A stretch of DNA of 64,000 nucleotides, from positions 1,199,197 through 1,263,196 of the forward strand of contig NC_090600.1 in NCBI RefSeq assembly GCF_000497125.1, read 5' to 3'. Both the position numbers and the translations under genes were made by a program. Positions within the stretch are counted from its first letter, which is position 1, and each line of letters opens with the position of its first letter. A model generated the notes under the pieces. It saw only the letters and a list, made by a program, of their open reading frames with translations. It did no database searches and was not told the DNA's origin. This document shows positions 17,051 through 54,518 of the stretch, piece by piece. This DNA is from Spironucleus salmonicida (taxonomy: Eukaryota).

Positions 17051-18697
17051 TCATATTTAAGTGATACCTAATCTAGCAACATTAGTAACTGCGGTTTTGA
17101 GCTGCATTTTCACTTTTGGCTCTATATTTGAGTTCATTATCATTTCACTAGTTGCTAAGAAATCTCCAGCCTAATTACTAAAATTGACACACCTTGATAA
17201 TCTTTCCTCAGTACCAAAATCAATTTTACCTCCTTACTGCCTGGCAAAAGTACATGTTTCCTTTACAACTTATGAGAATGAGTTACATATTTCTTGAACA
17301 ATGTTACAACAAGATACCACATTATCATAAACATCAGGCCTATTATTCATTTCCAAGCGCTTCAAATTTTTATTTATAATTTCTAAGACTTTAGTACCAC
17401 CATTTAAATCTAAAGTCTTTAAAACACCCATTCTTTATAAAATATCACATACTAACCGACAATCATCAAATTCTTAAACCAAGTCTAAAACATCTCTCTC
17501 TTCTCTATTTTTTAATTAATTTAATACAAGCAATTTATCTGACAAAATCCCCAATCTGTCATTATGATTTTACATAAATTTATCTATGTTCACGCTTCCT
17601 TTGCTACTGTAATTACTATTACTTTTCTTGGGCTAACTTGGCACGTACTCAATTTTTTCAGAATTATCAATAGCTTTGTACATATTAGTCGGATTATCTT
17701 CCTTATTAAAAGGAAATACGTATTTCAGAGAAACCACGTATATAACAACATTTGCATTTGGATTAGCAACCATAACTAGTATTTAGGGAATTGTTGAAGT
17801 TGTTCGTTGACAAACAGAAATAATATTATTGAATTGATATTCTAGCTAATTTTTCATGAATTTTTCGCCTGAATTTTCTACTACTCCGTAATCAAATATA
17901 TCAATACCGTGTTTTCTAACACCTACAGTGATCGCATCTTTAACTGGACAAAATAACCCGCTATATCCACCATTTCTAATTGGTGTGGTACTTACAACCC
18001 CACAATTCTAGGCGTCAAAAACAGTAGCTTTCTACCCGTCTGATGCGATGATAACCCGCTCTATCGGATGCGAGAAAATATACTAAACGCTCTTAAACGA
18101 GGAGCTTGTATTCCCAAGAAATATTTCACCCCTGTAAATCAGCTTTGTGAGATCCCAGACTAGAATTCTACCGCTTGCATCTCCGATATACAGCCAGCTG
18201 GCGTTGTAGTTAAACTACAGGCTTACAATTTCGTTGATGTCAACCAGCTTCGTCATTTGGCCATTCTTCATCTGGGACTGGTGCGCAGTGTTCAGATCTT
18301 GCAGTAGCTGGCCTTCACTACAATTCCAGAAGCGAACATTTCCGTCCTTCGCACCAGTGGCCGCAAACTGGCCGTTGGGCGTCAGTGCTGAGGCTGTAAC
18401 TGGCGCCCTGTGGGCCGATATCTACTTAGTCTGTTTGAGCGTGTGGGGGTCGAAAATGATGGCTTTTCCAGAGTCAAAATACGCTATTCCAGCAGTGTCA
18501 TTTTTAGAGATTGTTAAGCCCTACGGTGGCGCGTCGAAGATCGCCTCTGCTTTCATGACTGGCGTACCAAGGTCGAATGAGCGCATCGTGTTATTGGATA
18601 CGCAGAAGAAAGTTTGCGACTAGCCTCCGAAAGCTGCCACTTATGTGTTAGTTGCAAATGGTGCAAAAGACTAAAATGGGAAAATTTTATCTGTCAT
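17051..18697 (-). CDS. KATNB1: Katanin p80 WD40 subunit, 548 aa
   Basis: N-terminal WD40 (HRAPVTASALTPNGQFAATGAKDGNVRFWN) and C-terminal con80-like IDFGTEERLSRC. Confidence 0.75.
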
Positions 18698-27982: not shown

Positions 27983-29068
27983 ATGCCAATCACTGTATAG
28001 AAGAACCTTCCAGCAGTTGTTACCTCATAAATGGCTATAATGCGTCTACGTGAGCTTCACTTCGAGCGTGCTTTCTAAAACCAAAAAGCTCCTACTGCAG
28101 CAACATTTGCGTACAAATCAGCCTCCCCGATGGATCAACTTCTTGCGTTTTCTTCTATTTCACGCTGGCTTCTTGAGCGCTTAAATGCAAAACTGTAGAC
28201 ATTTTCTGAATTTGACGAACCGAATGCCATCGCATTGGAAATAATTAACGCGTCAAAGCCATTCGTTGACTGTAGTAGCCTCGCCCCTCACGAGTTAAGA
28301 ACTGGATCTGGAGATACAGTTTCTGCATTGATTTTGGCCCTTTCTGAGGCTGTTCTAGAAAAATAGTAGCTTACCGTTATTGCCTGGAAAGACCCTCAGG
28401 CGACCCAGCAATAGGCTCAGAACATTGAAGACGATGATTAGGATGAAGACTTTATTGATGATGTTTTCATGACTTCTTTCTCCAACAATCAGCAAACGCC
28501 TTAAAACAAAATTGCACAATAAGAAATTGCTCCAGGAATTTAGGACATTCACAAATGGAATGAAGAGCAATTATAGGTCGAACAGCAATTAAATGCGTCT
28601 AAATACGCTTAGGTTAACTAAGACTGGCGTCCAGATATTTAGAAACTTACTACGCTAGCTTCATAACTTTCTACTGAGTCTTCCACAATTACATAATAGA
28701 TATAAGTGGTTTCTGAAGGGATTGGTAAGTAGTTGGAACGTTTAACTCAAAGAGAATAATTTCTTAATTAATAAATATCATCTTTTTCTGGTAAGCTTAT
28801 TGAAGTTTCTAGAAAGCATCAATCTCTTACTAAAGAGCAGGACGAAGTTTAACAGGAAATTAGTGTATTAAACGAATAATTACTTGAAAATACTGATAAA
28901 TTTAAGCGCGCAAAAAGCGAACTTACAGCTGAAAACAATAGAATTACCGATACAAGTGGATTAAGCTTTGCTAAATAAGCAATCGCATCTTTAAGCAGTG
29001 AAATCAGAGATATAGATTTAAAGATAGTCCTCGCTTAATAAAGATTATTTTCGGGCGTGAGTTAATGA
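27983..29068 (+). CDS. IFT57: Intraflagellar transport protein IFT57, 361 aa
   Basis: FSEFDEPNAIA...PHELRTGSG..., WNEEQLQVEQQL, DWRPD, C-terminal coiled coil ending ITDTSGL. Confidence 0.82.
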
Positions 29069-29290
29069 CAAATAATTATTTTGTATAATATATACTTATA
29101 AACATTAAATACTTGTATTAATCAATTAAAGTTTGTAGACCTTTTAAATTACTAATTCGACGATGAACACAGCATTAGTTATTTTATTATTTTTATCGTA
29201 GCTTGTAATTATACTTTACACACCATAATTTCCCTTGCCTGTCACAATTGAAACTATTAGAGAATTGTTTGAACAAACAGATTGATTATT

Positions 29291-30046
29291 TCACTTCACG
29301 CCATTTTCTCGCTTGAGGGCCTCGAACTCGCGCCGGAAGAAGTCCTGGAACTCCCTGCTGCCGGCCCCGCGGATCTCGTCGAAGTCGCCATCGAAGTGCC
29401 TGTCGAACCACTCCTTCCGCAGCACCCAGCCTATTTCCATCGGGATAGCGTTGGCGGCCATGTCGTCGGTGTTGATGTCGGCCTTGGCGGGGTAGGTCTT
29501 CTGGGTGAGGAGGTCGAACGCACAGTCATCGGCGTCGATGAGCAGGTTCACGCTGGAGAACTTGAGCGGGAGCAGCGGCTGTATCGCGCACGGCTCCAGG
29601 CGGAGGTCGCGCACCTCAAAGAGCGCGGCGTCCAGGAAGGCGAAGGTGCGGCCGAAGACGGAGTGCACGAGCGTGCGGCTGGCAGGCCGGAGCACGCAGA
29701 GCGGGGACAGCGCGAAGTCGCTCACGTCGAACACGGCGCCCTTCTGGTCGAGGAAGCAGAGCCGCGGGCCGTGGCGGAAGAGGGCGTTGTTGCCGTGTCT
29801 TCGCAGGCCCATGCGCACGCTGGGGGCGGGGGAGAACTCCAGGAGCTCGTGGGCGCACGCGGCGTAGAACCGGCCGCGGAGGCACACGGTCTGCGTGGTG
29901 ATGGAGAGGGGCGAGGTGGCGGAGACGAGCGAGGGCTGGGACGCGAGCACCTTGCCGTACACGTCGATGGTGGTGTCCCTGGAGGCGCCGGAGAGCTGGA
30001 AGCCCTCGGGGGCGTAGCGGAGAAAGTAGAGCGCGCCGGGGTCCAT
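29291..30046 (-). CDS. Hypothetical protein, 251 aa (copy 1)
   Basis: MDPGALYFLRYAPEGF...LKRENGVK-TGA. Third positions almost all G/C. It is the C-terminal part of the 704-aa shadow ORF. Confidence 0.75.
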   Translation of the reverse strand: MDPGALYFLRYAPEGFQLSGASRDTTIDVYGKVLASQPSLVSATSPLSITTQTVCLRGRFYAACAHELLEFSPAPSVRMGLRRHGNNALFRHGPRLCFLDQKGAVFDVSDFALSPLCVLRPASRTLVHSVFGRTFAFLDAALFEVRDLRLEPCAIQPLLPLKFSSVNLLIDADDCAFDLLTQKTYPAKADINTDDMAANAIPMEIGWVLRKEWFDRHFDGDFDEIRGAGSREFQDFFRREFEALKRENGVK

Positions 30047-30078
30047 GGTGGAGAGGTGGAAGGGAGGGCGATACAGGC

Positions 30079-31392
30079 TCACTCTACCGCGTACACCGCG
30101 AACGCGAAGGGCCCCAACGGCACGGTGCCGTCCATGGGCGGGGCGGGGTGCCCGAGGAGCTGCCGGACGGCCCCCTGCAGCCAGCCGGGCGCGAGGGCCA
30201 CCTGCAGGGCGTGGTCGCTCAGGTTGGCCAGCACGATGCGGCGCGCTGCCCCGGTCCAGAGGCCGCAGAAGACGTAGCGGTGCACGTCGGCCTGCGTGAA
30301 GGCGCCCTGGAAGGCGTTGTCGCGCAACAGCCGCAGCAGGCCCGCGTAGAACTCCTGCACCGCTGGGTCCGCGGCCTCCGGTACCGCACGCCGCAGCTGG
30401 ACCCCGAGCCTGCCCCGGCGCCCCTCGAGCTGCCCGTGCTGGAAGAAGCGCAGCCCCGGCCGGAGGTAGCACTACACCGCCGCCGGGAGCGCGTTGTGGA
30501 ACCGCGCGATGCGGGCCTCGTCGTGGTTCTCCAGGAAGTGGCAGCAGGCGGGCCCGCACCGCAGCCCCTGGGCGAAGCAGTCCTGCAGGGCCCCGCAGGT
30601 GTCCAGCGGCCGCTTGCAGTACACGAAGTCGAAGCCGCGCTCCACCAGCGCGTCCTCGGTGTCCCAGTAGGCCTCCGCGAGGAAGACGAAGTCGCGGTAG
30701 GTGCGCCGGAGCGCCGAGATGGCGTCGCGCCAGAAGTCGGGGATCTCGGTGCCCCAGATGGACCGGTGCACGTCGGGCAGCTGCAGCATCGCCATGTCGC
30801 AGCGCACGCCGTCGCACAGGCTGGCCACCTTGAACAGGTCCAGGCCGCGGGCCGCGCGGGTGTCGGGCCGCGTGAAGTCGAACTGGGCCGTGTCGCCCCA
30901 GATGTGGTAGCGGTCCCTCCCGAAGAAGACGCCCGAGGGGTGCTGGTCCGTCGCCGAGCCGAAGGGTCCCCGCAGGAACAGCTCCGGGCAGGCCGCGGCG
31001 CACTCGAGGGACCCGTGGTTCGGCACGAAGTCCAGCACGAGCCGCATCCCGCGCTGGTTGAGGCGCCGCTTGAGCCCGAGGAGCGCGGCGTCCGTGCCGA
31101 GGGCGGGGTTCGCCACGTAGGCCGCCACCGCGAAGGGGGAGCCGATGACGTCGGCGGGCTGCAGGTCCGGGAGTAGCTCGCGATACACACGCTGGCGCTC
31201 GGGCCGGAAGTCGCAGGCGAGCGAGGCGGCCCCGAGCGTCCACGCGCCGAGGAGGTACAGCATGTCGAAGCCGCGCGCCGCCAGGGAGTCCAGGAAGCCG
31301 TCGGGTATCGCGTCCAGACCGCGCAGGCCCTGCTCGTACAGGAAGGGGCGCGCCGGGAGCTGGTAGAGCGTCGGGTACCTTCTCCGCTCCAT
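30079..31392 (-). CDS. GH13 alpha-amylase-like glycoside hydrolase, 437 aa (copy 1)
   Basis: LVLDFVPNH, DGVRCDMA, FLAEAYW, FLENHDE catalytic regions. Reads through one TAG=Gln to TGA. Confidence 0.88.
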
Positions 31393-31442
31393 TCTGATTT
31401 GGCATAATATGCCCGAAACCGTATCCAAACTTAGTTGCTCAC

Positions 31443-31636
31443 TCACTCGTGGTGCAGCTGGAGCATGAGGCCGAGCATCGCGTTGCCCTGCTCATGCACC
31501 CTCGCGCAGAAGACCTCGAAGCCCTTCAGGTCGGCCTCGTCGATCATCTCAAGGCAGCTGTGCATGGCCAGCATCGGCAGGCCCATGTCCACAACCTTCA
31601 TGTCGCAGTCCGCCGCCACCAGGTTCCCGATCGTCC
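31443..31636 (-). pseudogene. 5'-truncated fragment of the M18 aminopeptidase gene (last ~63 codons)
   Basis: Matches 40083-40276. Upstream is unrelated AT-rich DNA with no peptidase N-terminus. Confidence 0.8.
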
Positions 31637-32302
31637 TCAGGCATATAAGAACATAATAGCATTAAATAGTTATAATAATGTGAAGTAAAATCTACCTACA
31701 GTTTTAATAAATTCTTCATATTTTATTTTGACTTTATGGATTTTATACATATTTTTCTTATTGTTACCGATAAAATATGATGGATAAAGCCAAAACGGAA
31801 GTAAGATAATGTTTACAATAAGAATTAATGTGTAACTATTTTATACCATTGAAGAAATATAATGTGTAAAATGTGTAGTGAAATATTAATAAACAGAAAA
31901 AATATTATAATACACAAAATGAACTGACAAAAAATTAAGGATCTCAATCAATTTTAAACATGAAAATAGTTTGGTTTAAAAACGGATATAGTATTGCAAG
32001 CAGTTATTAAATAATTTTTTATTATTTAAACACAAAACGTTATACTAATAATAGAGTACTATAACTATATCAAATATTATAAAAGTATCTTATTTCGTTT
32101 ATTTTCTACTGCTTTGTGATATAATTAAGATTTCTAGATAAAATTTTCAGAAAATTAACTGCTAGCTAATAATTTATGTTTATTTAAAAAGTTATTTACT
32201 ATTATATGAATTCTACTAAAGTTAGAAATAAATTATATTCAAATTACAATATATAATATATAGATTGTAAATTCAAAATTTAACCACTCCAGTTAGCAAA
32301 AT

Positions 32303-32779
32303 ATGCAGAAGAAACGTGCTATTGAGCCAGAACTTACTGAAGAGCAAAAACACGAAATCCGCGAGGCATTTGACCTTTTCGACGCTGATGGATCAGGCCG
32401 CATTGACGTCAAGGAGCTTAAAGTTGCTATGCGCGCTTTAGGTTTTGAGCCCAAACGCGATGAGCTCAAGCGCATGATTTCTGAGGTGGATTCATCCGGA
32501 AACGGAACGTTGGACTTGAACGATTTCTTTAGAATTATGACAGCCAAAATGGGCGAGCGCGACTCTCGCGAGGAGATTTTGAAAGCCTTCAGGCTGTTCG
32601 ACGAGGACGACACCGGTAAAATTTCGTTCAAAAACCTCAAGAGGGTGGCAAAGGAGTTGGGCGAAAACCTCTCAGACGAAGAAATCCAGGAGATGATAGA
32701 CGAAGCAGATCGCGACGGGGATGGCGAGATTAACGAAGAGGAATTTTTGAGGATCATGAGGAGAACCAGTTTGTACTGA
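32303..32779 (+). CDS. CETN: Centrin (caltractin), 158 aa
   Basis: [34 protein letters not shown]..., four EF-hands, ends RRTSLY. Confidence 0.96.
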
Positions 32780-32810
32780 TAAATTCTTTTAATTATGTAT
32801 AATAATTGCT

Positions 32811-34940
32811 TCACTCGCTTCCGTCCATATGCACTGTCATTCCCAACCCCTAATATACTACGCTAATACTAGCATTTTATAGTTCCATTTTATTTCCTTG
32901 CAAAACCTCACAGTCATTATCTGCATGCCGTGCAAGCATTTCTAAATTGCATATAGATAGAGTATGCACAAAATTTAAATCAAATTCGGCCACACAATCA
33001 GCTACTGAATTCTACCCGTCTAATGTTAGTTTAATCAGCCTCTATATGTTATAATATCCTAACTGAAATACTCGTTTCATTCGTTTCATAGAGGATTCGG
33101 AAACTGTCTTTCCGATGTTATTTGAAGGCAATAATGGATCAGCGATATTAACAGATCTAAACTAAAACGGCGGTTTTTGGTCCTAGAAAAATTTAATCAA
33201 TAATGCTGATCGAACAAATTCATCTAATGTCTTACTTAATGCTTATAAAAACTATGTGTTGCTTATATTCTCATCCTAAAGAATGATTTTTTCATCTAAA
33301 TATTAAAAAAACTCTTAACACTGAGCACTGTATTCCTACCTATTTTAATCAGATTTCTTATAATTTTATAAACAATTTTTTAATCCTTTTTATTCTAAAA
33401 TATTGCCATCGCTCGCGACACGCAAAGCAATTAAATGCTTAATCTCTTTTGCTAATTATAGCTCTTTATCATTGAATTTTTTATGTACAAATTATGACAC
33501 CTATTTATCAAAGAAACTTTAAGCAGTATCGCAGCTTTCAAAATCTTCTCTAGGAACTGCTCCAAAAATAGTTATCAAATTTTAGGAAAAATCAAAGGAA
33601 GAAAAATAAGCTAAAAATGCATATAGTGCTTATAATGGTGTTGTGATTTGAGATTGATGTAAGAGAATAAAAATAACTAGGGTACGTAATCCATAAGACG
33701 AAAGCATAAAATTATGAGATCCTAAAATATGTAGCTCGTTAATACAGTAACATTATATAAATACAAGTGAGCGTTTTAGTAAATGGTTTTTACCTATATA
33801 GTTATCTATTAATTCTAAAAAATACGCTGTTAATACACCAGCTGGTTAAGTAAATGAAATATCGAAACCCACATCCTGGTATGTGAATTTAATAACTGGG
33901 ACTTCTGCATCGATATGTACTAGATTTTATAGTTCAATTCCAGAAAGAACTTTTAATACTCGCCGAGCAGTCACTTGTTCCTCTTCATCCTTGTTCCAGC
34001 AGCAGAAATCTATATCAGAATTAAATAAATAGCAGTGAGATTGAAAAGACCCATATGGTAAAATAACCGCAGTCGGAAGCTCTTTTGTAATAAGACTTGC
34101 TAATTCTTAGAATAATGTTTACCTAGTACATTAAACTTTTGTAGATGGCCCAACTATAGATATAAGGTCATCAATTCGTTCTGTAATGTATTGCAGATTC
34201 TAAACTGACTTGATGTACACCATATTTGCATCAGATTTTTGCATCTATCGAAGTGGAAGTGAGAATAAAATAGAATACTAAATATTATATAAAAATCACC
34301 ACTTATCATATTCGTCCACCCCAATTACAAATAATTTCTTAAAAGCATTAACTCTACCAGCATCAATCAATTTTGCAATAACGTTAACAACAAAATCAGC
34401 CTTGTCATGGTTCGGGGTTATCTTGCATACATCTAAAGTGCACTCTACGTATTCTTCCTCTTGGTAATCCAAATAATCATCATAGTTACATAAAGAAAGA
34501 TCGTCAAAATCACCTATACTAGTAATCTCAGATTCAGAAGCAAAAATAGAATCTTATTCTGATGATTCAGATATTTCATCTGCTTTTTCAATAATAAGAT
34601 GTACTTCAGCTTTCCTAGCTTACGTTTCATTCTTAAGTGCATTTTGTACTTCTATATCATGACCTAGAAGTTCTCTCAATTTGTCTATTATCATATTTTT
34701 ATCATTACTTGGCGTAGCTTAAACTTATGTTTACTGTATTTTTTTAAGAGCAGGTGGTGGAATATTAATCTTATTCATATATGATGTGTAAATTTTTGAC
34801 TCATGTTATAAATACTATAAGAAGACGGATTGTGCTTAATTTACTGGTAATTTAGCTTACTATAATAATTATGGTATATCACTTAGTTTTTACGTTCTAG
34901 AAATTTTTATTTTTTTATTATCTTGTTCAAACCAGCTCAT
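32811..34940 (-). CDS. Non-canonical poly(A) polymerase / nucleotidyltransferase (Trf4/PAP-associated-like), 709 aa
   Basis: YGSFQSHCYLFNSDIDF (GS...DxD motif) and NIADPLLPSNNIGKTVS. Confidence 0.78.
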
Positions 34941-35104
34941 TTTATTTTAGTAAATTCTGTTAATAGTATATAATATTGTAATTTAAAGTATAATTATATA
35001 TTGCTTTAAATAATAATATGTATTGAGTTTATCGGGCAAAATACTTAATTTAATATATTTATTATTGATTTAATGTTCGATTAATTCCACTCCTCCACTT
35101 CTTA

Positions 35105-36466
35105 ATGTTCTCTATAAACGATGATTCAGCTAACTTCCCTAATTTTGATTCAATTTAAGACCATGGAAGCTCATTTCTTCCGTTTGATAGCCAAATGGTA
35201 TAATCCCAACCTTAAATTACCACATTACGTTCTTCTCAAAAATTTTCCCTAACAAGTAGTCCTGATAAAATTCAAACAAATTAAGTCCCACCTAATCAGG
35301 TTCAATATTTAATGGCGAATTTAGTTAGCGCTGGATGCTCAAACTAATCAAGAAAAGTTTAAGATTTAGTAGATTTATTGGCTTAGAATGGTTAAAATGA
35401 TATTATTGATAGAGCTGTTCAATAGCATTTAGGGACACTTCATAATCTTATCACAGATAAATATGGTAATTATTTGATGCAATTATTAATTAAGCATTCG
35501 TCTCCGGACGTATTTTAAAATATTATTGCGTTAATTGAACACAATATTTTAGAATATTCATTCAATTAATTTTCTTGCAGAGTTGTTTAAGCTGTCACTG
35601 ATAGATGTATTTCCTTAAATATTTCCTATTTTGTTTTAAAAGTTTTTGATACTTTAGTATAAACCTAATAATTAACAACTCGTTCATTAAATTCATAATT
35701 TGCCAGCCATATTGTACTTCTTACACTTAATTCTATCCCATATTAAGATTAAGAAAAGATGTTTATATTCGCTGCATAAGATTTTTTAAATATAGCAAAA
35801 GATTAATATGGTTGCCGTATACTTGAGTATGTTTATAAATTTGTTTAAGATGCATTATCTGCAGTTTATGTTGAGGCATTATTTTAATTATTAAGTACTA
35901 ATGTACTACATTTATCAGATAATAGATATGGAAATTATCTTGTGTAGGCTGTTCTTAAAAACCAATTTTATTAAGTAAATAATTATTTAGAAAATATTAT
36001 GTAAGTATTAATGGATAGCTTTAGAACTCTTTCATAATCAAAATTTGGGTCTAATATTTGTGAGTGTGTCGTATAGCTTTGTGACATTTAAAGTCTTGTT
36101 AGATTAATTTCAAATTGTAATTTTGAAGAACTTATTAAAGACTAATATGGAAATTTCGTCACTTAAGTGTTTATTTAGAGAATGTCAGATTTCTCATTAA
36201 AGTGTTAATGCCCAGTATGTTGTATTAAACTTTAGGAATCATTAGAGTATTCTCATGACGTAGAAATGGATCAAATCAATATAGCCTTACCAATAGACTC
36301 AGATGTGATCTGTACGATGGAGCTTTTTAGAAAGTTTTGCTGCTTTATCAAGGGAGTTCTTGATATAGTACCATCTATTCATGTTTAAAGATCTATTTAG
36401 CGTTCTTTTGATTTCCATGACCTTGAAGTTTGTTCATTTGATGAATTTCGTGAACTCATCTTGTGA
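35105..36466 (+). CDS. Pumilio/PUF RNA-binding protein, 453 aa
   Basis: Repeats DKYGNYLMQ, NQFSCRVVQ, DQYGCRILE, NRYGNYLVQ, SKFGSNICE, DQYGNFVTQ. Confidence 0.88.
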
Positions 36467-36548
36467 GTGAGTGTGTAACCTAACATTTTATAGTTACTAA
36501 TATTATTTATAGTATAATTTCATTTATATTTGATTTTCACTCCTTAAG

Positions 36549-37970
36549 ATGTCTATAACAGAAGGAAAAGTAACATTAAATACTGACGTCGCATTTTACA
36601 ATGAAACATAAGTGTTTAACCGTGATTTCTCTGTCCTTGCCATTTCAACTTTTTTTGATCATTTTAAACCCAGAACATAAAACTAAGAATTAACGCTCCT
36701 TGATGCACTTTCAGCATCTGGACTTCGCGCACTAAGATATGCCGCGGAAATACCGCATGATATAAAAATTACTGCTAATGATATATCATTAGCAGCGACA
36801 GTCCAAATCAAAGAAAATGCAATTTTAAATGCCAAAACTCTTTAAATTTAACATTCAGATGCAAATCTATTTATGTATAATAATCCATGCTAGTTTTCAT
36901 GTATTGATATTGACCCATACGGCCATCCCACTCCATTTTTAGACTCCGCAATTAAAGCTGCTGCGCATGATGCACTGCTCTGTGTGACAGCTACTGATTC
37001 TCTTGTTACTTGCGGACGCCAACCTGAAGAGTGTCTTAGACGTTATAATTCACTTCCTGGAAACTCTGTTTTCGGGCACGAAGCTAGCGTTAGAATCGTC
37101 ATTGCAAGTATCGCAGAAACTGCTGCACGACAGCGTTGTGGAATTGATGTTTTATGCGCTTTTTATCAATTTCATTATTTACGCGTTTTCGTAAAATTAG
37201 ACAAAAAACGTTCTCGTGGTGTTGAAATGATTCAAAATTTGGCAGAAATTAACTATTGCGGGAAGTGCTAAAGCATGAATTTTGGCAGAAAAGTTGGCAG
37301 AATTTTTGCGTCTTAGACTGTAGAAAATTGTGAATTTTGCTATTAAAAACTTAAAGTTTGTGGGCCAATATGGTGCGGCGAAATTGGTAATAAATAGTTT
37401 TTAACACAAATAAATGATAATCTCGAAAAATTTCCATTATTGAATCAAATTTCAAGAATAAGTGCGCATGTAAAGTTCCAGCTTTTGGACTATGACAAGA
37501 CTCCACTTTTTTACGATCTAACAGAGATTTCAAAATACTTGAAAGTCACATGTCCTCCGATGTCGATTTTTGTTAATTTTTGCAGCTAAATTAATGTTGA
37601 AGTTAGTCCTACATGTTATTCTTCTAATGGATTTAAATGTAGCTATGATAGCTTTTAAAAAGTTCGTGACATCCTGAATTTATGGTTTAGATTGATGAAA
37701 AAAGGAGGGAAAAGTAAAAAAGAGTGGGAAGGAAAGGAGTGCGAAATTCTATTTTTGCATAGTGTTTAAGATCTTGAAAAGTTAATGAAAAAAGCAGGAT
37801 TTAATTCTGAATTAATTGAAAATTTTATAAAAGATAACTATTAAGAGTTTGTAAAAGAAGGGGGATTGCAGTATTAAAAAGAATTTACTGGGGAATGGGC
37901 AATTAGTAGTTAGTTGGGGCTCTTTAAAGGCAATCCTGGTAAAAATTGGGGGCCGAAGAAGATGAAGTGA
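36549..37970 (+). CDS. TRM1: tRNA (guanine-N2,N2)-dimethyltransferase, 473 aa
   Basis: AFYNETQVFNRDFSV, LDALSASGLRALRYA, IDIDPYG, C-terminal NWGP. Confidence 0.92.
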
Positions 37971-38312
37971 AAATTTGTAATGGGTTTAGTATAATATAAC
38001 ATTAACTCTTTACAAACAATCGAAAAATTAGACCGCTTATATAGTTCGAATTTTTATATAAAATAATACTCATATATATTTTTAAAAACTTTCATAATAG
38101 TAATATGTATAAATGTATATATATAAATAATTAATAGATTATGATAGTTTGCCTACTTAATCAATATAATATATTAACAAAGATTGTTAATTTCCATTCA
38201 CAGTATAAGTTTATTCAAACTAAGAATACTGTAATAAAATTGAGGCAGATGCTTTTGATATCAGAATAAATCAAATTGCCCTAACTCAAAAATTAAAGTA
38301 AAGTTTTGAAAT

Positions 38313-38633
38313 TCACATCTAACTAGAGTAGTAGTTCGTTTTTTGCTGTAGACGTTACAGACGTTCTTGGTCCAGTTACTCCCGTCTTGATTTATGAGAT
38401 TAGAATTTTGGATCTTCTTTGATAGAAGATACAATTTATTACCTTGGTTTCTTTATTTCTGGGGTGTCGTATGAGGCGTATGTAAGTGCTGAATATTTAA
38501 TTTTTTTAGGCTATAATGAATGGTAAGTTTATGATGTGATTGGAGTCATTTAATGATTACGATTGGGATTTGGTAATTTCATGTTATCTAGAATCCGTAG
38601 GATCTCTTTAGGGCCTTGTTTCAAAGTTGACAT
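38313..38633 (-). CDS. Small hypothetical protein, 106 aa
   Basis: MSTLKQGPKEILRILDNM...YYSSQM-TGA. Confidence 0.5.
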
Positions 38634-38953
38634 TTGAGGTTTGTCAATATTACGGTATAGGTTTTTATATAATTATATTCTTAATATTACATGACTTTAT
38701 TAATCTTTTGATAATTTTACTAAAAATAAGATAATGTATATTAAGAAAATTGCATAAAAATATAATTATATAATAATGATAAAGTATTAATAAATACTAT
38801 ATAAAAGATAAAAGCATTACAGGTTTGTTTTCCATACACTAAAGCAGTCTTAGTTGATATTTTAATGTATCTAGGTGAGATAGTGAATAATCAAACTATA
38901 CAATTAAATAACTATTATATATGTTAATTTAATAAGTAAATTCAGTTTCACAA

Positions 38954-40276
38954 ATGCTTACTTTTGAAGAATTTATAAGCGCTTCCCCATCACCTTATCA
39001 TTCGGTTAAAACAGCAGTGGATATGCTTGTATCTGCTGGTTTTAAACATATCAGAGAGTCTGAAGTTATACCATCTAATACTCCTTGTGTATATACTAGA
39101 GATGGTACTGCTGTTATTGGTTGGATACCAGGAACTGATTTTACTAGTGGTTTTACTTCAGTATAGTCTCATACTGATTCTCCTTGCCTTAGATTTGTGT
39201 AAAGCGGTGCTATAAAAGCTTTTGGTACTCTTATGTCAATTCCTGTTGAGCCTTACTCAGGATTGGTTGTTGGAAGATTTATTGATAGAAAATTGAGAGT
39301 TGGTGGTAGAATTTCTTATATAGTTGAAAAAGATGGTAAATTCATCCCTGCTTCTATTTTAGTTAAATCTGAGGGTGAATTTGTTATTCCAGGCCTTGCT
39401 CCTCACATGCTTCGTAATCCTGGAGATCCCAAAGATTGGATCCCAGAAGGTGATGATTTTGTTCTTTGTTGCCCTAAAACCGTTACAATCAATGGAAAAC
39501 AAATTGAAGTAAAAGAAAAAGCAACAATGAATGATCTATTTGCTCCCCTTCTCCCAGTAGGAGCTATTATTTCAGCTACTTAAATTGATATATCAGCAAT
39601 TGAATTCAACCGTTATGGGTCTCTCATTTAAGCACCTAGAATTGATAATCTAGCTTCTCTTTATGGATCTGTTGTTGGATTAATTAATTCTTTCAAAAAT
39701 ATTCCCACGTAGGCTAGCACGCGTATGATAGCTGGCTTTAATCATGAAGAGATTGGTTCTAGAACTCGTTCTGGGGCAGCTGGCATAGGCCTCCATGATT
39801 GGTGGTTAAGAGTTTGTTAACTTCCTTCTGATATTGCTATTGCAGCTATGCATAAATCTCTAAATATTAGTGCTGATGGGGCTCATGCTAATCATCCTGC
39901 TAAAGGTGCCTCTTCATGTCATGACCCAATACCTGTTCTTGGTAGTGGTGTTTGTCTTAAGTTTGGCTAAAAGTAGAATTATGCATTCACTGATAATCTT
40001 TCAGCAGTTGTTATCGCTATTGCTAAAAATGCTGGTGTTTCGACTTAAAAGTGGGTCGGTAAGTCATTCAAGGCCGGGGGCGGGACGATCGGGAACCTGG
40101 TGGCGGCGGACTGCGACATGAAGGTTGTGGACATGGGCCTGCCGATGCTGGCCATGCACAGCTGCCTTGAGATGATCGACGAGGCCGACCTGAAGGGCTT
40201 CGAGGTCTTCTGCGCGAGGGTGCATGAGCAGGGCAACGCGATGCTCGGCCTCATGCTCCAGCTGCACCACGAGTGA
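38954..40276 (+). CDS. M18 aspartyl aminopeptidase, 440 aa
   Basis: SPSPYH, SHTDSP, RIDNL, FNHEEIGS, SADGAHANHP, GGTIG, DMGLPMLAMHS. Last ~63 codons lie inside repeat copy 2. Confidence 0.92.
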
Positions 40277-40326
40277 GTGAGCAACTAAGTTTGGATACGG
40301 TTTCGGGCATATTATGCCAAATCAGA

Positions 40327-41640
40327 ATGGAGCGGAGAAGGTACCCGACGCTCTACCAGCTCCCGGCGCGCCCCTTCCTGTACGAGCAGGGCCTGCGCGG
40401 TCTGGACGCGATACCCGACGGCTTCCTGGACTCCCTGGCGGCGCGCGGCTTCGACATGCTGTACCTCCTCGGCGCGTGGACGCTCGGGGCCGCCTCGCTC
40501 GCCTGCGACTTCCGGCCCGAGCGCCAGCGTGTGTACCGCGAGCTACTCCCGGACCTGCAGCCCGCCGACGTCATCGGCTCCCCCTTCGCGGTGGCGGCCT
40601 ACGTGGCGAACCCCGCCCTCGGCACGGACGCCGCGCTCCTCGGGCTCAAGCGGCGCCTCAACCAGCGCGGGATGCGGCTCGTGCTGGACTTCGTGCCGAA
40701 CCACGGGTCCCTCGAGTGCGCCGCGGCCTGCCCGGAGCTGTTCCTGCGGGGACCCTTCGGCTCGGCGACGGACCAGCACCCCTCGGGCGTCTTCTTCGGG
40801 AGGGACCGCTACCACATCTGGGGCGACACGGCCCAGTTCGACTTCACGCGGCCCGACACCCGCGCGGCCCGCGGCCTGGACCTGTTCAAGGTGGCCAGCC
40901 TGTGCGACGGCGTGCGCTGCGACATGGCGATGCTGCAGCTGCCCGACGTGCACCGGTCCATCTGGGGCACCGAGATCCCCGACTTCTGGCGCGACGCCAT
41001 CTCGGCGCTCCGGCGCACCTACCGCGACTTCGTCTTCCTCGCGGAGGCCTACTGGGACACCGAGGACGCGCTGGTGGAACGCGGCTTCGACTTCGTGTAC
41101 TGCAAGCGGCCGCTGGACACCTGCGGGGCCCTGCAGGACTGCTTCGCCCAGGGGCTGCGGTGCGGGCCCGCCTGCTGCCACTTCCTGGAGAACCACGACG
41201 AGGCCCGCATCGCGCGGTTCCACAACGCGCTCCCGGCGGCGGTGTAGTGCTACCTCCGGCCGGGGCTGCGCTTCTTCCAGCACGGGCAGCTCGAGGGGCG
41301 CCGGGGCAGGCTCGGGGTCCAGCTGCGGCGTGCGGTACCGGAGGCCGCGGACCCAGCGGTGCAGGAGTTCTACGCGGGCCTGCTGCGGCTGTTGCGCGAC
41401 AACGCCTTCCAGGGCGCCTTCACGCAGGCCGACGTGCACCGCTACGTCTTCTGCGGCCTCTGGACCGGGGCAGCGCGCCGCATCGTGCTGGCCAACCTGA
41501 GCGACCACGCCCTGCAGGTGGCCCTCGCGCCCGGCTGGCTGCAGGGGGCCGTCCGGCAGCTCCTCGGGCACCCCGCCCCGCCCATGGACGGCACCGTGCC
41601 GTTGGGGCCCTTCGCGTTCGCGGTGTACGCGGTAGAGTGA
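40327..41640 (+). CDS. GH13 alpha-amylase-like glycoside hydrolase, 437 aa (copy 2)
   Basis: MERRRYPTLYQL..., same GH13 motifs. TAG at 41245-41247 read as Gln joins ORF-track pieces 40273-41247 and 41359-41640. Confidence 0.88.
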
Positions 41641-41672
41641 GCCTGTATCGCCCTCCCTTCCACCTCTCCACC

Positions 41673-42428
41673 ATGGACCCCGGCGCGCTCTACTTTCTCC
41701 GCTACGCCCCCGAGGGCTTCCAGCTCTCCGGCGCCTCCAGGGACACCACCATCGACGTGTACGGCAAGGTGCTCGCGTCCCAGCCCTCGCTCGTCTCCGC
41801 CACCTCGCCCCTCTCCATCACCACGCAGACCGTGTGCCTCCGCGGCCGGTTCTACGCCGCGTGCGCCCACGAGCTCCTGGAGTTCTCCCCCGCCCCCAGC
41901 GTGCGCATGGGCCTGCGAAGACACGGCAACAACGCCCTCTTCCGCCACGGCCCGCGGCTCTGCTTCCTCGACCAGAAGGGCGCCGTGTTCGACGTGAGCG
42001 ACTTCGCGCTGTCCCCGCTCTGCGTGCTCCGGCCTGCCAGCCGCACGCTCGTGCACTCCGTCTTCGGCCGCACCTTCGCCTTCCTGGACGCCGCGCTCTT
42101 TGAGGTGCGCGACCTCCGCCTGGAGCCGTGCGCGATACAGCCGCTGCTCCCGCTCAAGTTCTCCAGCGTGAACCTGCTCATCGACGCCGATGACTGTGCG
42201 TTCGACCTCCTCACCCAGAAGGCCTACCCCGCCAAGGCCGACATCAACACCGACGACATGGCCGCCAACGCTATCCCGATGGAAATAGGCTGGGTGCTGC
42301 GGAAGGAGTGGTTCGACAGGCACTTCGATGGCGACTTCGACGAGATCCGCGGGGCCGGCAGCAGGGAGTTCCAGGACTTCTTCCGGCGCGAGTTCGAGGC
42401 CCTCAAGCGAGAAAATGGCGTGAAGTGA
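41673..42428 (+). CDS. Hypothetical protein, 251 aa (copy 2)
   Basis: As copy 1, with one aa difference (QKAYP vs QKTYP). Confidence 0.75.
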   Translation: MDPGALYFLRYAPEGFQLSGASRDTTIDVYGKVLASQPSLVSATSPLSITTQTVCLRGRFYAACAHELLEFSPAPSVRMGLRRHGNNALFRHGPRLCFLDQKGAVFDVSDFALSPLCVLRPASRTLVHSVFGRTFAFLDAALFEVRDLRLEPCAIQPLLPLKFSSVNLLIDADDCAFDLLTQKAYPAKADINTDDMAANAIPMEIGWVLRKEWFDRHFDGDFDEIRGAGSREFQDFFRREFEALKRENGVK

Positions 42429-42619
42429 GAATAGTAATATAATCTTCTAACCCCAATAAATTTGATAGTAGACTTAAAGCTAAGTTAATTATGTAAATTA
42501 GATATATTAATAAACTGATGTTGTTAACAGTCTATAATTATTCATATGTAAATCTACTGGATTAAATTTGTGATGATAAATATTATATATTGTATTATTA
42601 ATAACTAAAAGAATAAATA

Positions 42620-42841
42620 ATGACGGAAGCACTTTAAAAACAATAAAGTTAACTTATATAGCAGGCTACTGTATTATCTGCTTAACTAAATAGAGATTCT
42701 ATTACTGTTAAATAGTAGCTAAATAAAATTAACTAAGAACTCAATGAATTTCTTAAATACGCTAAATAACGTGTATTTGATGCAACTAATACACATAGAT
42801 AAATCTGTGATAATCTTATTAATGAAATTGAGAAATTATGA
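42620..42841 (+). CDS. Small helical hypothetical protein, 73 aa
   Basis: MTEALQKQQSQLIQQ...EIEKL-TGA. Confidence 0.45.
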
Positions 42842-42889
42842 AATTATAATTTATTTATGCTAAATATATTTATAAATATATTTTATATA

Positions 42890-43858
42890 ATGCTCAAAAC
42901 ATCAATATTTGATTATGACGTTTATTATCCGCGTCATAATTGGGCACATTCTAAACATTTAGCAAATTAACTCAGGTCTACGGGAAAAGTAACTCAACTA
43001 CCAGTTTCAGCCTTACTTTCTGAATCAAAAATAAAGTAAAAACAAGGCTCATTATTAGACTTCATTATTTTCTTTGAGATTTCACCTTAAGAATAGCAGT
43101 TTCTCCTAAAGCTATCACCTGTAGAAACCGCTATTGCTTGCAAAAATTATTAGTCAATGTATTCCTTAACAAATAAACTAAAAAATTCTTTGGAGGAGTA
43201 TGATGATTTAACCGATTTTTGTTTGGCTGCATTATAAAATAAGTCTGGTAATGTATAAAATCTCTTTATTAAACTATCAGAATTCATTAAAATTGTTTTT
43301 ACAATAATAGAATTGATTTAAAAATTACGAAATATATAATAATAACCTCTATTTTATGAAATTTACGATGGAATCATACAAAATGAAGTTTTTTCTGTTT
43401 AAAATGTTTTTTCTATATTTTAAATTTTCAGATAGTTTGCTGTTTTTAAAGTCGGTAATGACGATGCTATTTTAGATAGAATCTAGTAGGTCGGTGAAAA
43501 TTTTTAGACCAAAATGCTACTGGGTGTAGGAAAATTAGGAAGGTTGTTATATGTTGGAATTTTAAGAATACTGAGTTATTAAACAACATTTTAAAATTAT
43601 GGAAAATACTATTATGAGTTACTCTATAAAGAAGAAAAAACTTTATAGGTATTTTAAAACTAGAACAACATTCTAGAACAGAGTGGATATAAATAATTTA
43701 CCGTTAATATACGTGGAAAGATTGATATTTTAGATATTTATCCTCTTAAAACTTATAGAAATGATATACTTGATGACTAATTCGATATATATGATATGAA
43801 AAGTAGTAATATTAGATAATCAACCTTAGTTACAGAAGAATTTGACGATTTTGAATGA
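42890..43858 (+). CDS. Hypothetical protein, 322 aa
   Basis: MLKTSIFDYDVYYPRHNWAHSKHL... to in-frame TGA. Confidence 0.65.
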
Positions 43859-50551: not shown

Positions 50552-51175
50552 ATGCCAAGTAAAGAAAACTCCGAATAAGCTCCATTAAGCTAGGTAAAAC
50601 CTGAATAAGATACTATTTCATCTGAATAATTACCTAATAAGAAATAATAAAATAATAAAAAGGTTGCATAAACCCTTAAAATTCCTATTCTTATTTTTAA
50701 TATTATCGGTACAGCATGCGTGTTTTCCCAAGGGATATGTAGTATTTTACGCTCTGTTGATGGTTTATAGTCTTCTAAACCGAAATTTTAGGATATCCAG
50801 ACGCTCATTATTTCCTTCTTCATCAGCGTGGCCGAGCTGTTTATATTCCTGGTCATCATTACCAAGAGAAAGCTCAGACTAAAATTGGAGAGCTGGTTCA
50901 CTCTCACCAAGAGTATCCATTCCTACTTCGTGGTGCAGATCCTGTTCTCGTTCATCTAGGGCCCGCAGGACATCTTCCCCTCGCCTGGCACCACCGTACT
51001 TCCCAATGTGTTCTACACCACCTACAACACCGCGCTATCCTATCTGCTGATAGCTGGATGGATCTGCAACACAGTAGCTTACCTGCTATACATGGTTGCC
51101 GCGGCGAACAGGAAGACGCAGTACAAGGCCGCAAAGAAGGCTGGGGCCGAGTCTGAGGTCATCCAGCTGTACTGA
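50552..51175 (+). CDS. Small multi-pass membrane protein (COPI-associated/TVP15-like architecture), 207 aa
   Basis: MPSKENSEQAP..., about four hydrophobic segments (IPILIFNIIGTAC, LIISFFISVAELFIFLVII, YFVVQILFSFI, LSYLLIAGWICNTVAYLLY). Confidence 0.65.
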
Positions 51176-51511
51176 GGTATGTTTTCACTTAGGAACTGCG
51201 CAAGGGTTTCCAGGTATCACGCTAGAGGCGAAATATGACTACGTGATCCCGACAACAGCGCCCGCAGAAATTTCATGGCACCCTGCATCTTTGCTGGCCT
51301 GGCTGCGCAACTCATGCCGCCCTCCTATATCGTACGCTGCCCTGCACTCGTCCACAATTTCCATCTGCCACCTGCCCACGCTATGCAATACCCTGCTGCG
51401 CTGCCAGGATGCTGCCACTTTCCGGGCAGGCGCCGCTCGCTGCCACCACAGCGTTAAACCTGGCCGGCCAGCTAATGCCCACACTAGGTGCCATACACTT
51501 ATCGTTACCAT

Positions 51512-51585
51512 GCTCCTGTGGCGTAATTGGATAGCGCACTTGACTACGGATCAAGGGGCTGCAAGTTCAAGTCTTGCCAGGTGCA
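51512..51585 (+). tRNA. tRNA-Arg(ACG), copy 1
   Basis: Cloverleaf: acceptor GCTCCTG/CAGGTGC, D-arm TGGCGTAATTGGATAGCGC, anticodon arm CTTGA-CTACGGA-TCAAG, T-arm GCAAG-TTCAAGT-CTTGC. Followed by a T5 tract. Confidence 0.93.
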
Positions 51586-52414
51586 AATTTTTCATCCGAG
51601 GATATGGTCTATCTAATAATAATGAGATGCAGTATTTACGCTTCTAGATGATATAGAGTCCTACATATCGATTCTTCGCTGTCCCTGAGTACAAGTGTCT
51701 CTAGTCATCCTATATAGGTAGTAAACACAGAGTGGTTCTAGTTTGTCAAAAACCAAAGAACACGCCGTTTAAAATGTCCAGTGTACTCCCTATAAAATCA
51801 CTTCTGGTTTTGGATGTTTAGTATTTTGGGGTTATATACTAAGAAGAATATTTTAAGTTGAAAGACATCGAAATTTATATTTTACTTTTATTTTAGTGCT
51901 TTTGCTGCTAACTGATAATTTATATTGCTTATGATATACATATTCTAAGCATATCTAACTAACTGTTTAAGATGATATTGTTATTAATATTACAGCAACA
52001 TGCTTTGATTCTTTATAGACTGAGACTATTAATTGACCAGTACGATGTATGAATTACCTTAGTTATTAATATTTCCATGCCAAAAAATTTAGTAAAATAA
52101 TAAATTTAAATTATTATATTTTCTGCTAATTTTAAAGTGCTTAAAATTCAAATTTCGCCCAATAATATTTATTCTCCTTCATAATCAGGAGCTGTTGTGA
52201 TTTCTGCAATTTTGCGATTCACAGTTCTCGCAGATACATTCCAAGTGCACCCCACGGTCATTTTTCTTCGTCGCCGAAACCAACCAAATATTATTTTCTG
52301 ACTTGCCGCGGTATCGCAGGCCACCCAAAATCTGGTTTTTTGCTAAGGAGACGCAGATTTGGCTTCCGCTCCATTTCCACAAAAACTCACTTTACGAACC
52401 TGCGAGCAACTAAA

Positions 52415-53878
52415 ATGCAGTACCTTTCCGCCATGTCGGGTGTCCAGTAAAAGGTCCTTTTCACAGTTTTGGCCCTCGCAGTGCCCTGCCTGTATCGGCG
52501 TCTCAGCCGGTCAAATTTCTACCTGCGCGACTTCGCAGTCTACCGCGCCCCCATTTCTTACCAGACGACTGGGACCGAAATGCTTAGGATCGCGCGCAAC
52601 TTCCACTTCTCGGCTGACGCGGCCAGCTTTGTCCGGCGCCTGCACTCGAAAACTGGTCTAGGACCGCGTGTGGCCGTCCCGCCGCATCTGCGCGCGCAGC
52701 AGCATTCGATCGAGGACGCCAGAAAAGAAGCATCTGACGTCATGTTCGCGACGATCGATGAACTGCTGCTGAAAACGCGAATTGTGCCCTCGGAAATCGG
52801 CGTTGTGGTGACGAACTGCTCGCTGTTCAACCCCACACCCTCGCTCGCATCCATGCTGATCAAAAAGTACCAGTTTCCGCCAACCACGCACGCATATTCG
52901 CTGGGAGGTATGGGCTGCGGTGCAGGACCTGTGGCAGTGGATTTGGTGCGGGCCATGATGAAGTTTTACGGCTGCAAGTATGGGCTCCTACTGAGCACAG
53001 AAAACATGACGCAACACTTCTACAACGGCGAGGATCGCTCTATGCTGCTCCCGAACACGTTGTTTAGAATGGGAGGAGCTGCAATGTTATTCACGAGCGA
53101 GAGAAAAGGGTCGAAATACGCCTTGCAGAATCTTATAAAAACACATAACGGACGAGATAAGAGCAGTTACGAATCTGTTTATCAGACTATAGACAACGCA
53201 GGTAAAACAGGTGTTCGTCTAGATAGAAGTATCACAAAGTGTGCTTAAAATGCTCTTAAAAATAATTTGCATAGGTTACTGCCAAGATGCCTGCCTAAAT
53301 ACGAACTTTTTAGATTTTTAGCTTCAAATTTGTATAGGAAAATTACCAAATAGTAGCCTGAGGTAATGCCGAAAATATGTTCCGGAATAGATAAATTCTG
53401 CTTCCACTGCGGTGGAAGGGGTGTTTTAGACGGAATGTAGTAGATGTTTAATCTGAATAAATAATAGATGGAGGCATCTAGAGCTGCTCTGTGGCGCTAT
53501 GGGAATACTTCTTCGGCGTCGATTTGGTACGGACTGGCATACCATGAAAATTAGGGAGTAAAAAGAGGCGATAATATATGGTAGATTGCTTTTGGAAGTG
53601 GTTTTAAAGCGAATTCACTCGTCTGGCGCAGTTTGGGTAGCAAAAACATAACCAAGTTTTGTGATGAAGAATGGAAATGGGATGAGTAAGAAGGATACGA
53701 TTTGATAGACTAAGAGGTACTGGATATCGATTATCATAAGGAAGATGAAGAAAAAAAAGTTTAAGATGAAGAAAATGAGTTTCAGTAGTTCTTATAAAAG
53801 TATTGGGGAAGAATTGAGATTTTAAGGGGGTGCAATATAAGGGATGTTAAATAGGAGATTTGTATGGTCCATGAGTGA
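52415..53878 (+). CDS. FAE1/KCS-type 3-ketoacyl-CoA synthase (very-long-chain fatty acid elongase), 487 aa
   Basis: NCSLFNPTPSL, LGGMGC, STEN, FRMGGAA, FCFHCGGR, YGNTSSASIWY, WQIAFGSGFK (Cys-His-Asn triad). Confidence 0.92.
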
Positions 53879-54436
53879 TGAATTGTAAATTTTTATAATT
53901 AATAATGTGTTTAAAGGTAATATGATATCAAAATAACTTATTTTGTAGTAGATATAGTGTTTAGCTAACTATGTAACAAAATTATATTATTATAATATGT
54001 AATTATATGTTAAAGTAAAATTAAGTTTGAACTAGTTAATATTTCCTTTGAACATTTATAGTCATATATCAGTTGTAAGCAAGGCTGAAGTACAAAAGTA
54101 AATTTTTAAACTAAGTAATGGATTATGAATTTTATAAAAATATTGAATTAACCACACTAATTAAGAACTTTAGTTGGCGTAACTTATATTATGACAATGC
54201 TAGCTTCTATATTATTATATACCAAAAGATTTATTTAATTCTTTGTGTTACATTTCTAGTAAACAATACTATATAAAACTTAGTGATTAGTAATAATAGG
54301 TAAGATAAAGTATGGTTTAAAGCTTCTATTTATCTTACGAAGAATTGGTTCCATGTTCTGCTCCTTGTATACTTGAGGCGAATTTCTATATTCTACAAGT
54401 TAAAAAATATTATTATAGATACATTATTATGAATAT

Positions 54437-54510
54437 GCTCCTGTGGCGTAATTGGATAGCGCACTTGACTACGGATCAAGGGGCTGCAAGTTCAAGTCTT
54501 GCCAGGTGCA
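54437..54510 (+). tRNA. tRNA-Arg(ACG), copy 2
   Basis: Identical to 51512-51585. Followed by AATTTTT. Confidence 0.93.
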
Positions 54511-54518
54511 AATTTTTA

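Follow-up and report, generated by a model that had tools for sequence, protein, structure and literature searches.

A sharp-edged, GC-rich inverted duplication in Spironucleus salmonicida, probably shaped by GC-biased gene conversion between its arms

How a stretch of chromosome can be present twice, inverted and nearly identical, at close to 70% GC in the midst of AT-rich DNA is the question raised by a locus of the diplomonad Spironucleus salmonicida, which we examined within a window of 64,000 nt (NCBI RefSeq assembly GCF_000497125.1, contig NC_090600.1, positions 1,199,197 to 1,263,196 of the forward strand; coordinates below are counted from the first letter of this window). A repeat search over the whole window returned one long inverted pair, 29291-31636 and 40083-42428, with 2346 nt per arm, and thereby recovered the same arms that the original prediction had drawn from the letters alone. 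The two arms lie on one chromosome and are separated by 8446 nt of single-copy DNA. Compared base by base they differ at 3 of 2346 nt (99.87% identity), precisely the three differences that had been noticed by eye, and a repeat of this length and identity is beyond chance. We conclude that the locus is a genuine inverted two-copy segmental duplication of a nuclear diplomonad chromosome, its palindromic arms set around an 8.4-kb spacer. As we argue below, its composition is best explained by arm-to-arm gene conversion that homogenised the arms and, being GC-biased, also made them GC-rich, an account that we hold to be probable. The features on which the argument rests are the following, where GC3 denotes the G+C fraction at third codon positions and ORF an open reading frame.

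29291..31636, minus strand: repeat arm A, 69% GC, lacking the 5' part of M18
31637..40082, no strand: unique AT-rich spacer of 8446 nt, covered by one 8506-nt DNA contig over 31607-40112, with RNA contigs over its genes
40083..42428, plus strand: repeat arm B, joined without a break to the complete M18 gene
38921..40276, plus strand: M18 aspartyl aminopeptidase gene (PF02127, E 9.8e-60), 451 codons when counted from the first ATG
40049..40083, plus strand: GC3 switch in M18, placed at 40049-40073, from ~0.1 to 0.9-1.0, 10-35 bp upstream of the repeat edge
31443..31636, minus strand: orphaned 3' end of M18 in arm A, comprising the stop and the 64 codons before it, same sequence as in arm B
40327..41640, plus strand: GH13 alpha-amylase-family gene, copy B, 437 aa, GC3 0.97, in-frame TAG at codon 307
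30079..31392, minus strand: GH13 alpha-amylase-family gene, copy A, same protein as copy B, two synonymous differences
41673..42428, plus strand: ORF3, copy B, a 251-aa orphan with Ala at the variable residue, a C-rich tract before the ATG and an AGTGA stop
29291..30046, minus strand: ORF3, copy A, with Thr at the variable residue
29278..29290, minus strand: 3' untranslated region of ORF3 copy A, 13 nt, with loose ends of poly(T) plus adapter at 29278 in runs X5 and X6

The architecture of the repeat indicates how it is likely to have arisen. Each arm opens with the final 64 codons of M18 and its stop, followed by 50 bp, the 437 codons of GH13, 32 bp and the 251 codons of ORF3. On their outer side both arms end with the final base of the ORF3 TGA, and in arm B the inner edge lies inside the M18 gene, in agreement with the predicted placement of one edge at a stop codon and the other within a gene. 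Because M18 runs on without interruption from the spacer into arm B, and arm A starts suddenly in AT-rich non-coding DNA, arm A is, judged from sequence, the derived copy. The three differences, given with arm B first, are C against T at 40536/31183 (TAC/TAT, synonymous), A against G at 41079/30640 (GAA/GAG, synonymous) and G against A at 42222/29497, which exchanges Ala for Thr in ORF3; all three of these pairs oppose G/C to A/T. No leftover homology past the outer edges was found in a 520-nt alignment of the outer flanks. The view that the repeat is not a mobile element was borne out, as transposase, integrase and reverse-transcriptase families were found in 0 of the 45 ORFs scanned with Pfam, no terminal repeats of at least 40 nt were present at the arm edges, and no target-site duplication was visible at the arm A edges when the flanks were inspected by eye. 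Besides the arms, the window contains two repeats of at least 40 nt, a direct one of 94 nt at two tRNA-Arg genes and a weak pair of 48 nt.

The compositional contrast follows this architecture closely. The arms have a GC content of 0.694, and 1-kb bins wholly inside them range from 0.67 to 0.725, against 0.25-0.38 in the bins just outside, so that the visual estimate of roughly 70% against about 25-30% in the flanks was well founded. Change-points in GC placed by likelihood fall at 29297 (support 29290-29317) and 31643 (31642-31645) for arm A, and at 40072 (support 40048-40076) and 42430 (42410-42435) for arm B; three of them coincide with repeat edges, and the fourth, where arm B meets the spacer, lies 7-35 bp outside the repeat. 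Within the arms GC3 reaches 0.973 in GH13 and 0.94 in ORF3, and four-fold degenerate sites are G/C at a frequency of 0.97, against 0.21 in 11 genes of AT-rich context. Glutamine is written almost entirely as CAG in the arm (CAG 28, TAG 1, TAA 0, CAA 0) and mostly with the reassigned codons in the 11 AT-context genes (TAA 194, TAG 109, CAA 102, CAG 39). Synonymous first positions are shifted as well, from TTA to CTG/CTC for Leu and from AGA to CGC/CGG for Arg, and the CpG observed/expected ratio in the arm is 1.06. The shift weakens towards the edges, with 14 of 169 codons ending in A/T within 300 bp of a repeat edge compared with 16 of 557 deeper inside (Fisher p=0.0037), although the 300-bp bins of this gradient were picked post hoc, with the data already seen.

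The most direct view of this contrast is provided by M18, a single gene that crosses from one composition into the other. Its first 383 codons have a GC3 of 0.18 and its last 68 a GC3 of 0.956, the reading frame running unbroken from the AT-rich into the GC-rich part, and a public 440-aa protein (P0124) covers 98% of the ORF at 100% identity. The gene contains 11 in-frame TAA/TAG (Gln) codons, every one of them in the AT-rich part. Its best named relative is from Hexamita inflata at 48% identity, followed by two further relatives at 47% and 41%, with all else at or below 34%. The GC-rich tail is 51-52% identical to the diplomonad homologues, compared with 48% for the AT-rich N-terminal part and with 23-35% for six other homologues, among them the three named bacterial ones and the one named fungal one; it retains the GGGTIGN motif, the C-terminal extension and the diplomonad-specific residues that the diplomonad homologues have in common. 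The diplomonad-like character of the tail marks the GC-rich island as native rather than foreign DNA, and its unchanged GARP/FYMINK amino-acid make-up places the compositional shift of M18 at synonymous sites. GC-rich codons begin 10-35 bp before the arm B repeat, which suggests that arm A was formerly slightly longer. A relative from a metagenome that uses genetic code 6 (L001, 45% identity) has an M18 gene with GC3 even at 0.1-0.65 and no jump; this is the 1 confirmed locus among 316 pattern matches of a metagenome scan, on a 1264-bp contig that carries M18 alone and no neighbours.

Taken together, these observations suggest the following course of events. The ancestral locus would have had the order M18 aminopeptidase, GH13 amylase-like gene, ORF3, and the segment from inside M18 to the ORF3 stop would have been copied in inverted orientation 8.4 kb upstream. 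Repair of double-strand breaks would then have been templated repeatedly on the other arm, keeping the arms at their present near-identity of 99.87%, and mismatches in the resulting heteroduplex would have been repaired preferentially to G:C. Over long time this would have pushed the free sites of the repeat to G/C while purifying selection preserved the proteins. Conversion would be limited to the homologous stretch, hence an island that shares the edges of the repeat and fades towards them. The island is confined to the stretch present in two copies, which points to a homology-limited process, and the known process of this kind is gene conversion with G:C-biased repair; the edge gradient, the opposition of G/C to A/T at 3 of 3 differences and the jump-free M18 of the metagenome relative all fit. 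The same model predicts that crossing-over between the arms would invert the spacer without disrupting M18, since arm A has the M18 3' end. Of the concerted evolution proposed in the original prediction, then, the match between island and repeat edges and the GC3 gradient make it the best reading, and a recent duplication stands beside it as a rival.

Several points weigh against this explanation. No outgroup locus was found, so that conversion itself and a rise in GC after the duplication are both inferred, and the needed bias, with an equilibrium GC of ~0.97, is far above what has been reported for the palindromes of primates. That each arm ends on its outer side precisely at a stop codon is not foreseen by the model. 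Between M18 and GH13, the 50-bp spacer has just 42% GC even though it lies inside the arm; constraint from a promoter is a plausible reason and one that GC-biased conversion must invoke. The organism-named bacterial relatives of GH13 come mostly from GC-rich groups, so part of the GC was possibly inherited. In the two DNA runs, X1 and X3, the flanking contigs reach 30 letters into the arms, one letter under the bridging rule, and the k-mer depth of the repeat contig is not twice that of the flanks (152 vs 164-185 in X1; 16.4 vs 10.9-11.8 in X3), a shortfall that we attribute to GC bias of the libraries and that such bias would have to explain. Finally, segments with GC3 of 0.5-0.77 occur in other genes that have no partner inside the window, which indicates that duplication is not the sole route to higher GC here.

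Three such segments were seen, each within an otherwise AT-rich gene and with no partner in the window: 52364-53084 in the KCS gene (GC3 0.6-0.77), 18031-18661 in a WD40 gene (GC3 0.5-0.67) and 8012-8300 in the WDR19 gene (GC3 0.5-0.7). The KCS and WD40 proteins are the sole members of their 90% clusters. Partial paralogues elsewhere, old conversion or hot spots are possible sources of the raised GC3 in the three segments.

The strongest rival holds that a pre-existing GC island, raised by a recombination or repair hot spot or by an earlier partner since lost, was duplicated recently, in which case the arms would be alike through youth and not through conversion. We regard this as unlikely, though as a serious contender. 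The three differences in 2346 nt resemble the allelic heterozygosity of 0.09-0.15% given for S. salmonicida in the available part of PMC9509377, the outer flanks lack residual homology as simple breakpoints would leave them, and genes without a window partner or a 90% paralogue also have raised GC3. Such a duplication would nevertheless require the island edges to match the breakpoints by chance, with a tolerance of 35 bp in M18 and none at the stop of ORF3; a hot spot would be expected to produce a peak and not a plateau bounded within tens of bp; and the lower GC3 near the repeat edges suits a homology-limited process.

A foreign island, whether received by recent lateral transfer from a GC-rich bacterium or introduced by contamination and then duplicated, is improbable, and the evidence on this point comes largely from the genes inside the arms and from the code and signals of their host. 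Read with genetic code table 11 the 64 kb contain just 14 ORFs of at least 150 aa, 10 of the 14 inside the arms, and table 4 was tried with no gain over table 11. With table 6, in which TAA and TAG encode Gln, normal eukaryotic genes appear (IFT57, WDR19, Trm1, PUF, a protein kinase, an FAE1-type condensing enzyme, HMG-box and chromodomain proteins), and a Pfam family (E<=1e-4) is then assigned to 18 of the 41 ORFs scanned. An AGTGA stop signal ends all three arm genes, and poly(A) or poly(T) plus adapter follows 10-14 nt past the TGA of four genes on both strands, at 29278, 32792, 37980 and 38299. In the portions of PMC3916229 available to us, AGTGA stops with very short 3' untranslated regions are described for S. 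salmonicida and S. barkhanus. Published for these species as well are a TATA-like region and, ~10 bp ahead of the ATG, a C-rich motif; the C-rich tract of ORF3 sits where the published motif would. With TAA/TAG read as Gln, a Hexamita-like M18, AGTGA stops and a short distance to poly(A), the host looks like a Spironucleus-type diplomonad.

The two other genes of the arms bear differently on a foreign origin. GH13 matches PF00128 with E 9.1e-06 (25.6 bits vs a cut-off of 22), and its D199, E240 and D291 occupy invariant columns in an alignment with 9 homologues; we take them to be the catalytic Asp-Glu-Asp of conserved regions II, III and IV. The TAG at codon 307 falls in a variable, usually hydrophobic column and conserved sequence resumes after it, so this TAG is read as a sense codon (Gln). 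Among the best 120 of 5115 homologues identity is 37-45%, and 7 of the 7 organism-named entries are bacterial. GH13 lacks several segments found in all nine aligned homologues, and among solved structures it has two weak alpha-amylase matches alone (E 7e-06 and 8.5e-05). These features suggest, at the level of sequence, an old lateral transfer from bacteria that has since diverged; an old bacterial origin of GH13 alone leaves the GC island unexplained. ORF3 has no Pfam family and no homologue among 578 candidates, which could also speak for a foreign source. An exhaustive phmmer search gave 9 weak matches (E 3e-07 to 7e-04), all on one 29-residue stretch; the 4 that were scanned comprise 3 large WD40-repeat proteins and 1 SpaA-type protein, and the matches were rejected as homologues and read as likeness to a single repeat unit. 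Atlas scores for ORF3 were at or below 0.85, under the meaningful level, and a single-sequence AlphaFold model (mean pLDDT 34) gave no usable fold.

Against a foreign source stand the start of the island inside a native gene whose GC-rich tail is diplomonad-like, the in-frame TAG of GH13 in both arms, which is open under the host code only, the ceiling of 45% GH13 identity to any sampled bacterium, and the presence of host AGTGA at all three genes, the C-rich tract before the ATG of ORF3 and polyadenylated transcripts. The earlier rejection of contamination is thus upheld by the continuous M18 frame with its diplomonad-like tail, the TAG read as Gln in GH13, the AGTGA stops and the poly(A) RNA.

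Equally improbable, in our view, is a process that senses repeats and actively drives duplicated DNA from A:T to G:C, a mirror image of the repeat-induced point mutation (RIP) of fungi that spares coding capacity. RIP resembles the present case in that only duplicated DNA changes its composition, with limits that are those of the repeat, and differs in running in the opposite direction, to AT-rich and gene-destroying, where here the genes are intact and the copies identical. Hypermutation by transitions only was considered and set aside, as Val is written GTG 32 times and GTC 9 times in the arms though GTT exceeds GTA outside, so that transversions are needed; the test is a weak one. If a repeat-targeted process from A:T to G:C were real, it would take the place of passive enrichment through mismatch-repair bias and be the general cause of the shifts from 30% to 70% GC that form islands in Spironucleus.

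That the second arm is an artefact of assembly or of haplotype, with only a single copy in the genome, is very improbable. In its favour, the doubled depth that a read-depth check was expected to give was not seen, the repeat contig standing at 0.84x (X1) and 1.4x (X3) of the flanks, and the two DNA runs come from one sample that is possibly the source of the assembly itself and so may not be independent. The topology of the contigs nevertheless speaks for two arms. In both runs the repeat forms a contig of its own, 2346 nt long, and the flanks form contigs over 28500-29320, 31607-40112 (a single piece of 8506 nt) and 42399-43200. Each flank contig enters the repeat by 30 nt, unbroken at the edge and without an alternative branch, contrary to what a haplotype lacking a copy would give; there are four distinct junctions at flank-level depth, and the spacer contig enters the same repeat end on both sides. 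This topology calls for two inverted copies per chromosome and rules out a haplotype missing one arm, in keeping with the original exclusion of an assembly artefact. The repeat contig of X1 equals arm B and that of X3 equals arm A, and this difference places both arm variants in the reads.

Two runs from a second study, X5 and X6, which are taken as RNA from the program's guess and from their adapter and poly(A) ends, add further support. One RNA contig (38969-40281) spans M18 across the GC switch and the arm B junction, and another (29278-31383) carries GH13 and ORF3 and ends at a poly(A) site that lies 13 nt beyond arm A, in its unique flank. One RNA contig also carries the arm-B letter at 31183; together with the poly(A) site in the arm A flank, this letter indicates that both gene copies appear to be expressed. 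The gap in the RNA contigs over 31446-31936 and most of arm B are uninformative, as reads from identical arms are placed on one arm. The contig over GH13 and ORF3 also joins the two genes across their 32-nt spacer, possibly as read-through or as a bicistronic RNA.

Selection for G/C-ending codons in these genes, for translation or mRNA stability, is the least likely of the alternatives, for although the arm genes are expressed and an EF-hand gene of the spacer has GC3 0.59, the one M18 mRNA passes from GC3 0.18 over its first 85% to 0.96 in the tail, the M18 piece of arm A, which is untranslated, is as GC-rich as its arm B counterpart, and published optimal codons are mostly U-ending (PMC1805757, as far as the available text goes). 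A transcription-linked cause of the GC is excluded, a single M18 mRNA having both compositions.

The nearest mechanism in the literature is that proposed for primate palindromes. The accessible part of Jackson et al. 2021 (PMC8981503) describes primate X/Y palindromes with inverted arms, a unique spacer and arm identity above 99%, as here, and with arm GC above that of the flanks, for which intrachromosomal conversion preferring G/C is the proposed cause. The evidence for conversion there is drawn across species, whereas here it is inferred from one genome. Primate palindrome arms are also far longer than the 2.3-kb arms of our locus, the primate GC shift is much smaller than the change from 0.21 to 0.97, and the diplomonad is tetraploid and is not known to have been observed in meiosis. 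Plastid inverted repeats are likewise two inverted copies homogenised by conversion, with flip-flop of the region between them and a composition and rate unlike those of single-copy DNA; they differ in being organellar and in having a small GC difference, and flip-flop at our locus is a prediction.

The published description of the host agrees with what we find. In the parts available, PMC9509377 and PMC1805757 report TAA/TAG as Gln, a background of ~30% GC with sharp-edged islands of ~70%, GC-richer duplicates and high-GC3 genes unexplained by lateral transfer. Duplicated regions of S. salmonicida (at least 2 kb at no less than 95% identity, 19.2% of the genome) have 44.7% GC against 30.7% elsewhere according to the available portion of PMC9509377 (Xu et al. 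2022), which gives no cause for the higher GC there and brings up gene conversion solely in connection with expanded surface proteins. In the sections at hand, Andersson et al. 2007 (PMC1805757) record sharp shifts from 30% to ~70% GC and high-GC3 genes not from lateral transfer in S. salmonicida, and term the shifts a 'peculiar phenomenon' ill explained by mutation or selection. These papers, in the same sections, offer genome-wide statistics and leave the cause open; the passages contain no match of island to repeat edges, no within-gene switch and no GC-biased conversion, and figures or supplements may show the pair. Among papers on diplomonads and Spironucleus, judged largely by their titles, we found none that names GC-biased conversion as the cause of the GC islands.

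The spacer carries, besides the 5' 85% of M18, the following genes.

32303-32779, plus strand: EF-hand gene (Pfam), GC3 0.59
32811-34244, minus strand: poly(A)-polymerase-like gene (Pfam)
34296-35225, minus strand: ORF
35105-36466, plus strand: PUF gene (Pfam)
36549-37970, plus strand: Trm1 tRNA methyltransferase gene (Pfam)
38313-38990, minus strand: ORF

Elsewhere in the window, an Rfam search found two tRNA-Arg genes only. The pair, two identical tRNA-Arg(ACG) genes in direct orientation (51499-51592 and 54424-54517) that lie 2925 nt apart, flanks the gene for the FAE1/KCS-type condensing enzyme. A stretch at 50800-51500 has 44-64% GC, its start overlapping the end of a membrane-protein ORF (50552-51175); from the end of that ORF up to the tRNA-Arg gene at 51511 there is no convincing ORF, and an Rfam search of 50900-51700 gave nothing beyond the tRNA. 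At the right end of the window, GC rises to 0.45-0.59 over 63400-64000, adjoining a VWA-domain ORF (62926-63459), and this may be the start of a further GC-rich stretch cut by the window edge.

In summary, the locus is one clean instance of a pattern reported statistically for its host, and is neither a mobile element nor foreign DNA nor an artefact. It serves as a natural experiment in which one native gene goes from GC3 0.18 to 0.96 on entering a repeat, a within-gene switch that is taken to exclude foreign origin, effects of transcription and codon selection. By this means it links the unexplained compositional mosaic to repeat homology and makes the link testable. If the link holds genome-wide, it would imply very strong GC-biased conversion in diplomonads, would account for the compositional mosaic of this genome, and would caution against inferring lateral transfer from GC content in such genomes.

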